From the NCBI RefSeq assembly GCF_030013595.1, contig NZ_CP122768.1: DNA of 64,000 nt, one strand, 5' to 3'. Below, in pieces: positions 2,261 to 58,756 of the stretch. Every line of letters begins with the position of its first letter. The stretch's first letter is position 1. The stretch is from Escherichia coli. GTDB taxonomy: Bacteria > Pseudomonadota > Gammaproteobacteria > Enterobacterales > Enterobacteriaceae. The notes below the pieces were generated by a model. It was not told the origin of the DNA and ran no database searches. It saw only the letters and a program-made list of their open reading frames with translations. A program made the translations under genes and the position numbers.

Positions 2261-2920
2261 ATGCCAGCTTTAGATTTGATTCGACCGTCGGTAACCGCCA
2301 TGCGGGTGATTGCCTCCGTTAACGCCGAATTTGCACGTGAACTGAAATTGCCGCCGCATATTCGTAGCCTCGGGCTGATTTCTGCTGATTCAGATGACGT
2401 CACCTACATTGCGGCTGACGAAGCGACCAAGCAGGCGATGGTCGAAGTGGTATATGGTCGCTCGCTGTATGCGGGCGCTGCACACGGCCCGTCACCGACT
2501 GCCGGTGAGGTGCTGATTATGCTTGGTGGACCAAACCCGGCGGAAGTGCGTGCTGGTCTGGATGCGATGGTTGCGAATATTGAAAATGGCGCTGCTTTCC
2601 AGTGGGCAAATGACGCAGAAAACACAGCCTTCCTGGCACATGTAGTTTCGCGTACCGGTTCTTATCTCTCATCAACCGCCGGGATCACGCTTGGCGATCC
2701 GATGGCGTATCTGGTGGCACCGCCGCTGGAAGCGACCTACGGCATTGATGCAGCGTTGAAATCTGCCGACGTGCAGTTGGTGACCTATGTCCCGCCACCG
2801 TCTGAAACCAACTACTCGGCAGCATTTTTAACCGGTAGCCAGGCCGCGTGTAAAGCAGCCTGTAACGCCTTTACCGATGCAGTGCTGGAAATCGCGCGTA
2901 ATCCAATCCAGCGTGCGTAA
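2261..2920 (+). CDS. eutL: bacterial microcompartment shell protein EutL
   Basis: 219-aa ORF with RBS AGGAGG 6 nt upstream; tandem BMC-like fold; eut operon position. Confidence 0.92.
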
Positions 2921-2932
2921 CGGAGGTTGCCG

Positions 2933-3433
2933 ATGATCAATGCACTGGGATTGCTGGAAGTGGACGGCATGGTCGCCGCGATAGATGCAGCTGATGCCAT
3001 GCTCAAAGCAGCTAACGTTCGTCTGCTCAGTCACGAAGTGCTTGACCCTGGTCGCCTAACGCTGGTGGTGGAAGGCGATCTGGCGGCGTGTCGTGCGGCG
3101 CTGGACGCAGGTTGTGCTGCCGCGATGCGTACCGGGCGTGTCATCAGCCGTAAGGAGATCGGTCGGCCAGACGATGACACCCAGTGGCTGGTTACTGGCT
3201 TTAACCGCCAGCCGAAGCAACCCGTAAAGGAACCCGACGCGCCAGTTATCGTCGCGGAATCTGCTGACGAGTTGTTGGCGCTGTTAACATCAGTACGTCA
3301 GGGAATGACGGCAGGAGAAGTGGCTGCCCACTTTGGCTGGCCGCTGGAAAAAGCCAGAAATGCGCTCGAACAGCTCTTTTCTGCCGGGACGTTACGTAAA
3401 CGCAGTAGTCGTTACCGTCTCAAGCCCCATTAA
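2933..3433 (+). CDS. eutK: bacterial microcompartment shell protein EutK
   Basis: 166 aa from ATG 2933 (track ORF starts at an upstream TTG); BMC domain LGLLEVDGMVAAIDAADAMLKAANV; RBS GGAGG upstream. Confidence 0.9.
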   Translation: MINALGLLEVDGMVAAIDAADAMLKAANVRLLSHEVLDPGRLTLVVEGDLAACRAALDAGCAAAMRTGRVISRKEIGRPDDDTQWLVTGFNRQPKQPVKEPDAPVIVAESADELLALLTSVRQGMTAGEVAAHFGWPLEKARNALEQLFSAGTLRKRSSRYRLKPH

Positions 3434-3478
3434 CCTGTCGGAGGTGCCGGGTGTCCTACAACACCCGGCATTAACATC

Positions 3479-4531
3479 ATGAAAAAGACCCGTACAGCCA
3501 ATTTGCACCATCTTTATCATGAACCCTTACCCGAAAACCTGAAGCTCACGCCGAAGGTCGAAGTGGATAATGTTCATCAACGACAGACAACGGACGTCTA
3601 TGAACATGCTTTGACAATTACCGCCTGGCAGCAGATTTACGATCAGCTGCATCCGGGCAAGTTTCATGGTGAATTTACGGAAATTCTACTCGATGATATT
3701 CAGGTTTTTCGTGAATACACTGGTCTGGCGCTGCGTCAGTCGTGCCTGGTCTGGCCGAACTCGTTCTGGTTTGGCATTCCGGCGACGCGCGGTGAGCTGG
3801 GATTTATCGGTTCGCAATGTCTGGGAAGCGCAGAAATTGCGACGCGCCCGGGTGGAACTGAGTTTGAATTAAGTACGCCGGACGATTACACGATCCTTGG
3901 CGTAGTGCTTTCTGAAGATGTCATCACTCGTCAGGCTAACTTTTTGCATAATCCGGATCGGGTATTACATATGCTGCGTAGCCAGTCGGCGCTGGAAGTG
4001 AAAGAGCAGCATAAAGCCGCGCTGTGGGGCTTTGTCCAACAGGCGCTGGCGACGTTTTGCGAGAACCCGGAAAATCTCCATCAGCCTGCAGTGCGAAAAG
4101 TGCTGGGGGATAATTTGCTAATGGCGATGGGGGCGATGCTGGAAGAAGCGCAGCCGATGATGACGGCGGAAAGCATCAGTCATCAGAGTTACCGTCGATT
4201 GCTTTCCCGCGCCCGTGAATATGTGCTGGAAAACATGTCCGAACCGGTGACGGTGCTGGACTTGTGTAATCAACTGCATGTCAGCCGCCGCACGCTACAA
4301 AACGCGTTTCACGCCATTTTGGGCATTGGTCCGAACGCGTGGCTGAAACGTATTCGCCTGAACGCCGTGCGCCGCGAACTCATAAGTCCGTGGTCACAAA
4401 GCACAACGGTAAAAGACGCCGCCATGCAGTGGGGATTCTGGCATCTTGGGCAATTTGCCACGGATTATCAGCAACTGTTTGCCGAGAAGCCGTCACTGAC
4501 GCTGCATCAGCGGATGCGAGAGTGGGGGTGA
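3479..4531 (+). CDS. eutR: AraC-family transcriptional activator of the eut operon
   Basis: 350-aa ORF; C-terminal AraC-type HTH ([42 protein letters not shown]); last gene of eut cluster. Confidence 0.93.
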
Positions 4532-8031: not shown

Positions 8032-9015
<984 letters not shown>

Positions 9016-18700: not shown

Positions 18701-18750
18701 TGTAACCTGTAGGCCTGATAAGACGCGCAAGCGTCGCATCAGGCAACACC
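18701..18750. repeat. REP (repetitive extragenic palindromic) element
   Basis: GCCTGATAAGACGCG...CGTCGCATCAGGC imperfect palindrome between cysA and cysM. Confidence 0.8.
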
Positions 18751-21006: not shown

Positions 21007-21036
21007 AAAATGGCGCCGATGGGCGCCATTTTTCAC
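21005..21036. terminator. bidirectional intrinsic terminator between convergent pdxK and crr
   Basis: AAAAAATGGCGCCGATGGGCGCCATTTTT palindrome with flanking A and T runs. Confidence 0.65.
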
Positions 21037-23959: not shown

Positions 23960-23990
23960 CAAAAAAGCACCTGAAAAGGTGCTTTTTTAC
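23960..23990. terminator. intrinsic terminator downstream of cysK (bidirectional hairpin)
   Basis: AGCACCT-GAAA-AGGTGCT stem-loop flanked by A-run and T-run, 20 bp past the cysK stop. Confidence 0.6.
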
Positions 23991-35875: not shown

Positions 35876-35902
35876 AAAAAAGCGCCTTTAGGGCGCTTTT
35901 TT
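35876..35902. terminator. bidirectional intrinsic terminator (xapR / tRNA operon)
   Basis: AAAAAAGCGCC-TTTAG-GGCGCTTTTTT hairpin with A and T runs. Confidence 0.65.
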
Positions 35903-44296: not shown

Positions 44297-44323
44297 TTGA
44301 ATGAGCGTCGCATCTGGCACTAT

Positions 44324-44412
<89 letters not shown>

Positions 44413-58726: not shown

Positions 58727-58756
58727 CAAACAGGAGCCTGATGGCTCCTGTTTTTC
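58727..58756 (+). terminator. intrinsic terminator after alaC
   Basis: CAGGAGCC-TGAT-GGCTCCTG hairpin followed by TTTTTCATT. Confidence 0.7.

Follow-up and report, generated by a model that had tools for sequence, protein, structure and literature searches.

A conserved hairpin between the only Shine-Dalgarno sequence and the start codon of eutR, a candidate split ribosome-binding site in Enterobacteriaceae

Split ribosome-binding sites, in which a hairpin separates the Shine-Dalgarno (SD) sequence from the start codon, have been described in phage T4 (Nivinskas et al. 1999; Malys & Nivinskas 2009; reviewed in PMC3014915). The hairpin of T4 gene 38 brings a spacing of 22 nt down to 5 nt and that of gene 25 one of 27 nt down to 11 nt, as established by mutagenesis and structure probing; destabilising mutations lower the translation of both genes, and only close T-even relatives carry the hairpin (PMC3014915). 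Cellular mRNAs are described as rarely having non-contiguous initiation regions (PMC7297116); in the thrS mRNA, a long hairpin stays folded within the initiation region while the ribosome accommodates it (PMC3936740). Here, we analyse a hairpin at the junction of the ethanolamine utilisation genes eutK and eutR, contained in a 64,000-nt stretch of an Escherichia coli chromosome (contig NZ_CP122768.1 of assembly GCF_030013595.1; hereafter the window). The hairpin lies between the start codon of eutR and the only SD of that gene, and it is conserved with compensatory changes in several genera. With moderate confidence, at about an even chance, we propose that it is the looped-out middle of a split, or non-contiguous, eutR ribosome-binding site.

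The eutR junction shares with T4 genes 25 and 38 the order SD, hairpin, short spacer and AUG, the position at an intercistronic junction, and the conservation in close relatives with an ordinary site in distant ones. The T4 sites are phage sites proven by mutation and probing, whereas eutR is a chromosomal gene of Enterobacteriaceae and its candidate site is read from sequence. In addition, unlike its T4 counterparts, the eutR hairpin also stands beside a second, proximal SD in some lineages, and a second helix may pair the start codon. The thrS and rpmE mRNAs resemble eutR in that a stable folded hairpin is tolerated inside the ribosome-binding region (PMC3936740, PMC7297116), but there the hairpin lies between an A/U-rich enhancer and the SD and serves as the operator for an autogenous repressor, whereas in eutR it lies between the SD and the start codon. 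Hairpins that occlude the SD or the AUG, such as those of T4 gene e and of RNA thermometers, likewise place a stable structure under the initiating 30S subunit; they differ from eutR, whose conserved stem includes neither the SD nor the AUG, with two optional G·U pairs touching the SD in some lineages only.

Known control of the eut operon comprises promoters P1 and P2 and CsrA acting on the eutS leader (PMC10433801, PMC5821096), together with the small RNA MavR, whose target is the 3′ portion of the eutR coding region. The eut literature that we searched for a eutR stem-loop, hairpin or intergenic element, a coverage outside which the operon paper of Kofoid et al. 1999 falls, does not describe the element.

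The hairpin at the eutK-eutR junction and its conservation

Of 5,426 complete E. coli genomes, 5,420 match positions 3000–4000 of the window, a segment annotated as eutK and eutR; the gene coordinates are those of an annotated E. coli genome with 100% identity to this segment. All features described here lie on the plus strand. eutK occupies 2933–3433, with its stop codon TAA at 3431–3433, and the eutR coding sequence (CDS) occupies 3479–4531, with its ATG at 3479–3481. The spacer between them is 45 nt long in E. coli and carries no annotated feature in RefSeq. Reading of the sequence revealed no in-frame alternative start between the eutK stop and the eutR ATG, and the EutR N-terminus, MKK, is aligned across all orthologues compared.

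Within the spacer, GCCGGGTGT (3446–3454) and ACACCCGGC (3461–3469) are exact reverse complements around a 6-nt loop, CCTACA (3455–3460). The sequence thus bears out the perfect 9-bp stem with a 6-nt loop at 3446–3469 from which this analysis started, and T3445–A3470 even lengthens the stem to 10 bp. The 5′ arm is therefore T followed by GCCGGGTGT (3445–3454) and the 3′ arm is ACACCCGGC followed by A (3461–3470), both arms being supported by folding and by covariation. The minimum free energy (MFE) fold contains two more, optional G·U pairs, G3444·U3471 and G3443·U3472. The 10-bp hairpin (3445–3470) has a predicted stability of −19.2 kcal/mol, and the 81-nt region that was folded reaches −26.3 kcal/mol versus −17.0 ± 3.2 kcal/mol in shuffles (z −2.95; 0 of 200 shuffles as good). 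Nine bases (3470–3478) separate the 9-bp stem from the eutR ATG, and the segment between the hairpin foot and the ATG is an A/U-rich spacer, TTAACATC (3471–3478), without an SD. On the other side, the hairpin foot lies 11–12 nt downstream of the eutK TAA in E. coli, and this distance is 11–13 nt in most hairpin-bearing lineages (shorter or unclear in lineages L108 and L104).

A single perfect stem is only mildly unusual and not compelling alone, because the window holds 13 distinct hairpins with perfect stems of at least 9 bp and loops of 3–8 nt. These correspond to 24 overlapping hits, and the same search on 30 dinucleotide shuffles gave a mean of 2.2 hits. The twelve further hairpins include those at 749–772, 8074–8096, 21007–21032, 23962–23987, 35877–35901 and 58728–58753, and several of the twelve have A-runs before and T-runs after the stem, as is typical of bidirectional intrinsic terminators.

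Orthologous junctions were collected by a one-genome-per-species scan with EutR, which gave 63 loci, and by a metagenome scan, which gave 37 more loci and used anchors only in the eutK and eutR coding sequences, being hence blind to the spacer. Twelve additional lineages with 63–88% EutR identity were fetched singly, and the comparison comprises ~80 orthologous junctions in total. The conservation check set by the original prediction turned out in favour of the stem: the hairpin is found at the same spacer position, with compensatory changes, in Escherichia, Salmonella, Citrobacter, Klebsiella (K. oxytoca group), Pseudocitrobacter, Phytobacter and others, and its upper stem differs from genus to genus.

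Among 28 distinct hairpins, 93.2% of the cells at paired positions are standard pairs, versus 79.0 ± 1.5% in shuffles and 33–48% when the partners are slid by 1–3 columns. Two-sided changes occur in 7 of the 10 pairs (reached by 2 of 500 shuffles), 21 additional pair types are present (0 of 500 shuffles), and the covariation score is 0.472 versus 0.195 (matched by 0 of 500 shuffles). These results agree with those from an earlier set of 22 hairpins, in which 21 of 242 cells are G·U or U·G. Because G·U pairs correspond to A·C mismatches on the opposite strand or in duplex DNA, the selected structure is in the sense-strand RNA, and the covariation of the sense RNA agrees with the original prediction of an RNA-level action at the eutR translation initiation region. 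An operator for a dimeric DNA-binding protein was rejected, since the arms covary, the distance between the invariant feet varies and the 21 G·U cells would be mismatched in DNA or antisense RNA.

Pairing was read from alignments in stem register (A3 and A5), in which the 5′ arm is left-justified, the 3′ arm is right-justified and the loop centre is removed. Because such an alignment leans towards structure by construction, the slid controls are the fair comparison. A MAFFT alignment (A1) and a covariance-model alignment (A2) misregister the variable upper stems, so that their pair counts underestimate pairing. One row of A5, that of lineage L102, is one base short and loses one true pair, which makes the count conservative.

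Within E. coli, the spacer of 45 nt is under purifying selection: its identity reaches at least 99% in 5365 of 5390 records, whereas that of the surrounding 1 kb does so in only 1098 of 5421. Most spacer substitutions within Escherichia fall in the loop, at 3456 and 3459, the loop being the only segment that varies within E. coli and close Escherichia, and E. whittamii shows one compensatory pair, 3452/3463. Conservation and covariation, as read from the aligned junctions, settle that the hairpin is no chance feature.

Two groups of loci stand apart. In Klebsiella sp. S69 (L107, 1140–1200), the spacer carries GGAGA and only a 5-bp foot of the hairpin remains; no gene is called in the 1.2 kb upstream of eutR, and the eut locus and the structure look as if they were decaying together. 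Four contigs (L001, L057, L058 and L059) are labelled as a Citrobacter metagenome-assembled genome, Bacillus hominis and Prolixibacteraceae, and their eutR is 94–99% identical to that of E. coli. L057–L059 are just 411–457 bp long, and the four contigs are probably mis-binned or contaminants in public assemblies.

The distal Shine-Dalgarno sequence and its natural variants

What the original prediction overlooked is that eutR has no SD near its ATG and that its sole SD lies at the 5′ foot of the hairpin. Specifically, GGAGG at 3440–3444 is the only SD-like element upstream of eutR, and in E. coli it directly abuts the hairpin foot. Pairing of eutR positions −18 to −1 with the 3′ tail of 16S rRNA is worth −1.7 kcal/mol, the second weakest value among 47 neighbouring E. 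coli genes (median −5.8 kcal/mol), and the 'distal' duplex of GGAGG, at −39, is stronger than that of any other of the 47 genes (−10.8 kcal/mol); this calibration was run on the annotated E. coli genome's own sequence, which is identical in this region. The linear distance from GGAGG to the ATG is 34 nt in E. coli, and with the hairpin folded it becomes 8–10 unpaired nt. Because the SD sits outside the 5′ foot, the hairpin looks placed to shorten the SD–ATG distance, not to hide the site.

The occlusion of the eutR ribosome-binding region that had been suggested for the hairpin does not fit this anatomy. The conserved pairs of 3446–3469 exclude both the SD and the start codon, the 8–10 nt beside the ATG hold no SD (the −1.7 kcal/mol given above), the only SD lies outside the 5′ foot, and pairing of its last two G with the UU past the stem is predicted in some lineages only.

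The same geometry is found throughout the crown group, in which GGAGG is present in 69 of 70 loci and GGAGA in metagenome locus L075. The genomic loci, 33 in number, provide 25 distinct SD-to-ATG segments, and adding the 37 metagenome loci raises this to 32. In the 25 segments, the linear SD–AUG distance is 34–38 nt, the hairpin begins 0–2 nt past GGAGG and has 8–12 bp with a ΔG of −16.7 to −23.6 kcal/mol, and 8–13 (mostly 8–11) nt are left unpaired. The proximal SD duplex is worth −0.9 to −3.4 kcal/mol in nearly all crown-group lineages; L110 has a weak AAGGA (−5.5 kcal/mol). In one lineage (L102, 1201–1222), a public EutR call of 357 aa, which belongs to a cluster of 2,937 sequences, begins at a TTG that lies within the loop of the hairpin and 7 codons further upstream than the conserved ATG. 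This start is probably mis-annotated, because the gene caller likely rewards the distal SD.

Some lineages vary the hairpin itself. Intestinirhabdus alba (L028, 1404–1500) has a 97-nt spacer with a single extended hairpin of ~77 nt (−50 kcal/mol), in which GGAGG still abuts a hairpin foot homologous to that of E. coli and the AUG follows 9 nt beyond; the distance from the foot to the AUG is thus approximately constant even with a hairpin three-fold larger. In Phytobacter (GUCGG/CCGAC) and in L111 (GCCGA/UCGGC), the otherwise invariant foot is altered, with compensation.

Other lineages vary the position of the SD. In Buttiauxella-type junctions (EutR identity 64%), the spacer measures 18–21 nt, a hairpin is lacking and AAGGAG stands 7 nt from the ATG; Pectobacterium, Dickeya, Lonsdalea, Brenneria, Morganella and Hafnia have a canonical proximal SD; the hairpin is absent from the junctions of Buttiauxella, Pectobacterium, Dickeya, Lonsdalea and Morganella. 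L105 and L112 (72–74% EutR identity) have a stable hairpin with an SD on both sides, Yokenella (71%) has a weak hairpin (z −0.34), also with an SD on both sides, and L108 (78%) has a hairpin with a proximal SD only. Among the lineages compared, none is without both SDs, and wherever the proximal SD is missing the SD at the hairpin foot is kept. Furthermore, a direct SD repeat flanks the hairpin in L105 (1156–1200; AGGAG...AGGAG) and in Yokenella/L030 (1455–1500; GGAGG...GGAGG), with a degenerate version in L112 (1153–1200). The repeat looks like a target-site duplication from the insertion of a palindrome into an ancestral SD–AUG spacer.

The split-site reading and its rivals

If eutR uses a split site, the anti-SD tail of the 30S subunit would pair with GGAGG (3440–3444) on the eut mRNA, and the hairpin (3445–3470, about −19 kcal/mol) would remain folded, outside the mRNA track. 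The folded hairpin would shorten the SD–AUG distance from a non-functional 34 nt to a functional 8–10 unpaired nt, allowing initiation at AUG 3479 despite nothing SD-like beside it. We infer this use of the distal SD by the ribosome, and the need for a folded hairpin in that use, from features expected of a split site: an SD more than ~15 nt upstream, no usable proximal SD, a hairpin that cuts the spacing to ~5–13 nt, and a structure conserved in close relatives with an ordinary site in distant ones. The hairpin probably originated as a palindrome inserted into the ancestral SD–AUG spacer, the intermediates carrying an SD on either side, and it may retain an older, SD-independent role in mRNA stability or processing.

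Published data on Salmonella are consistent with a split site but indirect. A translational P2-eutR′-′lacZ fusion made with primers that enclose the junction is expressed, over-production of CsrA lowers it, and CsrA binds GGA motifs at SDs (PMC10433801). Sites of the CsrA type have at least two GGA motifs, one of them overlapping the SD, and are bound by CsrA; at this junction, one GGA lies in the eutR SD.

Several points weigh against the split site, above all as a sole role. In L105, L112 and L108, where the proximal SD is good, the hairpin is maintained all the same, with compensatory differences; because it persists there, bridging is probably neither its sole nor its original function, and an additional, SD-independent role in mRNA stability or in the tuning of eutK is likely. 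Partition-function folding gives the SD a mean unpaired probability of 0.23 in E. coli and predicts a second helix that keeps the AUG paired nearly all the time, so the site may be closed, not optimised. A spacing of 8–13 free nt plus the width of the helix foot would lie at the long end of workable SD spacing. In addition, conservation of GGAGG alone does not prove SD function, because the non-SD block CCTGTC is equally conserved, and few independent events stand behind the pattern of never lacking an SD, because the lineages are related by descent. The candidate functions considered here, namely a split site, a stability barrier, a damping of EutK and a closed structure, are mutually compatible.

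The persistence of the hairpin in lineages that also have a proximal SD lends some weight to a role as an intercistronic mRNA stability or processing element, a role that we regard as possible but unlikely as the main one. The hairpin would block 3′-to-5′ exonucleases after an RNase E cut in the A/U-rich spacer or in the body of eutR, so that the eutS–K message outlives the eutR cistron, or it would protect the 5′ end of a processed or P2-derived eutR mRNA, and the position of the SD would be incidental. Such a role would suit a stable GC-rich stem just past an intra-operon stop codon, followed by an A/U-rich single strand, and a hairpin that covaries even beside the proximal SD of L105, L112 and L108. 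It would likewise suit the finding that the eutR mRNA is very unstable and a substrate of RNase E in enterohaemorrhagic E. coli (EHEC) (PMC8565329) and the description of hairpins resembling repetitive extragenic palindromic (REP) elements as exoribonuclease barriers (PMC12306157). However, it leaves unexplained the near-invariant GGAGG exactly at the 5′ foot, the crown-group-wide loss of the proximal SD, and the distance of 8–11 nt from the foot to the AUG, which holds when the hairpin triples in size.

The predicted pairing of the start codon belongs to a larger set of predicted helices. UCAUGA.AAAGA (3477–3488) can pair with UCUUU.UCAUGA (3511–3522) at −9.7 kcal/mol (z −4.1), which gives a tentative second hairpin (3477–3522) between the start-codon region and codons 11–15. 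Codons 11–15 (CAT CTT TAT CAT GAA), as well as codons 2, 3 and 5, have no synonymous variation in 31 distinct eutR CDS, in which invariant codons make up only 8% and codons 17–21 are nearly free of synonymous change. A predicted closing helix joins UCGG (3438–3441) with CCGA (3531–3534, codons 18–19) and would make a three-way junction. Alignment A1 shows hardly any variation in the CCTGTC block (3434–3439) that separates the eutK stop from the SD, one base (3434) being changed in two Escherichia sequences. The block is predicted to pair with codons 17–20, no compensatory changes having been found, and it may form the 5′ side of a predicted long-range helix. As for the SD, its last two G are predicted to pair with the UU past the stem in E. 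coli and Citrobacter, and its first two G with the CC of codon 18.

These helices could make the hairpin one arm of a translational operator of ~100 nt (3434–3534) that keeps eutR closed, a proposal that we consider improbable. Its predicted parts are the closing helix, which would take the first bases of the SD, the hairpin itself, and the helix between the start codon and codons 11–15; it would be opened by ribosomes terminating at eutK, through translational coupling across 45 nt, or by a trans factor such as CsrA. More generally, we think it quite improbable that the hairpin belongs to a larger closed structure, one that would hold eutR translation down as long as it is not opened by eutK-terminating ribosomes, CsrA or another factor. 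MFE and ensemble folds of −48 to +60 do give the junction in E. coli, Citrobacter, Salmonella, K. grimontii and Phytobacter, with the AUG ~100% paired, and the silence of codons 11–15 and near-silence of codons 17–21, the conserved CCTGTC block and the response of the Salmonella fusion to CsrA over-production point the same way. Against this, comparison of the orthologues found no compensatory change in either helix: the start-codon helix is invariant, not covarying, and is lost in L102 and L110, and the closing helix is changed in its 5′ strand, uncompensated, in Pseudocitrobacter, L103, L110 and L111. Moreover, the conserved stem includes neither the SD nor the AUG.

Similarly doubtful is a role of the hairpin as a stop-proximal structure that lowers EutK synthesis through ribosome stalling and trans-translation, as for REP elements. 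In keeping with such damping, EutK is a minor shell protein. According to Liang et al. 2015, as cited in PMC12306157, a stable REP hairpin less than 16 nt past a stop codon lowers upstream translation, and the eutR hairpin, with its foot 11–12 nt past the eutK TAA, lies within this '<16 nt' rule. The distance is, however, equally explained by the stop codon followed by 6 nt and the SD; the element is single-copy and off the REP consensus, and the missing proximal SD of eutR is left unexplained.

The hairpin does share traits with REP elements: it is a GC-rich intra-operon palindrome whose foot starts with GCCGG, it lies less than 16 nt past a stop codon, and it is a short extragenic palindrome of 24–26 nt that forms a stem-loop, as REP elements are defined in PMC12306157. 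REP elements differ by their repeat consensus, the eutR hairpin being single-copy and restricted to one orthologous site across genera, with compensatory changes. In a search with the REP consensus GCCGGATGCGGCG...CGCCTTATCCGGC, the full pattern gave 0 hits, and allowing 3 mismatches in the 13 positions of the arm consensus still did not bring in the hairpin; true REP arms at 18713–18744 and 44306–44412 (0–1 mismatch) served as positive controls. A copy of a REP element or of a bacterial interspersed mosaic element (BIME) was rejected, since across 5,389 E. coli genomes the hairpin's median number of places per genome is 1.

We consider it very unlikely that the hairpin is a neutral relic of a REP-like palindromic insertion and that eutR is simply poorly translated without an SD. 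The exact direct SD repeats that flank the hairpin in L105 and Yokenella (degenerate in L112) do resemble a target-site duplication, and the foot of L103, GCCGGAT, resembles a REP arm. Yet a relic would not be expected to covary strongly across several genera, nor to lie in a spacer that is near-identical over 5,389 E. coli genomes while its flanks diverge, and the structure decays only in L107, a locus without an upstream eut gene called within 1.2 kb.

Least of all do we credit coupling through a mini-ORF (open reading frame), in which GGAGG would serve GTG 3451 and translation would melt the hairpin and hand ribosomes to eutR: the E. coli mini-ORF (GTG TCC TAC AAC ACC CGG CAT TAA, 3451–3474, 7 codons), present in Escherichia, starts at an ideal 6 nt past GGAGG and stops (TAA 3472–3474) 4 nt before the eutR ATG, and a comparable intergenic small ORF is documented for mgtC–mgtB (PMC8092293), but ATG, GTG and TTG are all missing 3–14 nt after the SD in 12 of 30 lineages (Salmonella, the Klebsiella oxytoca group, Phytobacter and Intestinirhabdus among them), and the remaining lineages hold unrelated ORFs. 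A conserved mini-ORF of the mgtQ type was accordingly rejected, there being no counterpart conserved outside Escherichia in the 30 lineages.

Intrinsic terminators likewise consist of a GC-rich stem-loop past a stop codon; here, the next gene begins 9 nt later. The original prediction that the hairpin is not a classical intrinsic terminator holds: no U-tract follows the stem in any lineage (in E. coli the stem is followed by AUUAACAUC), and this class was rejected. A terminator and promoter scan of 2900–3700 found nothing, and the P2 promoter is therefore unplaced. An Rfam 15 scan of 2900–4000 at a permissive threshold returned three chance-level hits, of 15–16 bits versus gathering thresholds of 37–39 (E 2.5–4.8), and the hairpin matches no known Rfam family.

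Meaning for eutR expression in Enterobacteriaceae

Ethanolamine use is turned on by EutR, which also has a part in controlling virulence genes in EHEC and Salmonella. EutR competes with EutBC for adenosylcobalamin (PMC5821096), and because both compete for this cofactor the level of EutR must track that of EutBC. The ~100-nt operator, if true, would put an additional, post-transcriptional gate on EutR autoinduction, the loop that is in competition with EutBC for this cofactor. At the practical level, the distal SD probably misleads gene callers, as with the TTG start of L102, and standard calculators of ribosome-binding-site strength would mis-score eutR.

The split ribosome-binding site, if true, would make eutR a clear chromosomal example of the SD–hairpin–AUG arrangement, which in the literature searched we found only for T4. 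The arrangement is conserved across medically important Enterobacteriaceae, and it comes with natural variants, namely a hairpin three times the size, intermediates that carry two SDs, and ancestors that carry one.

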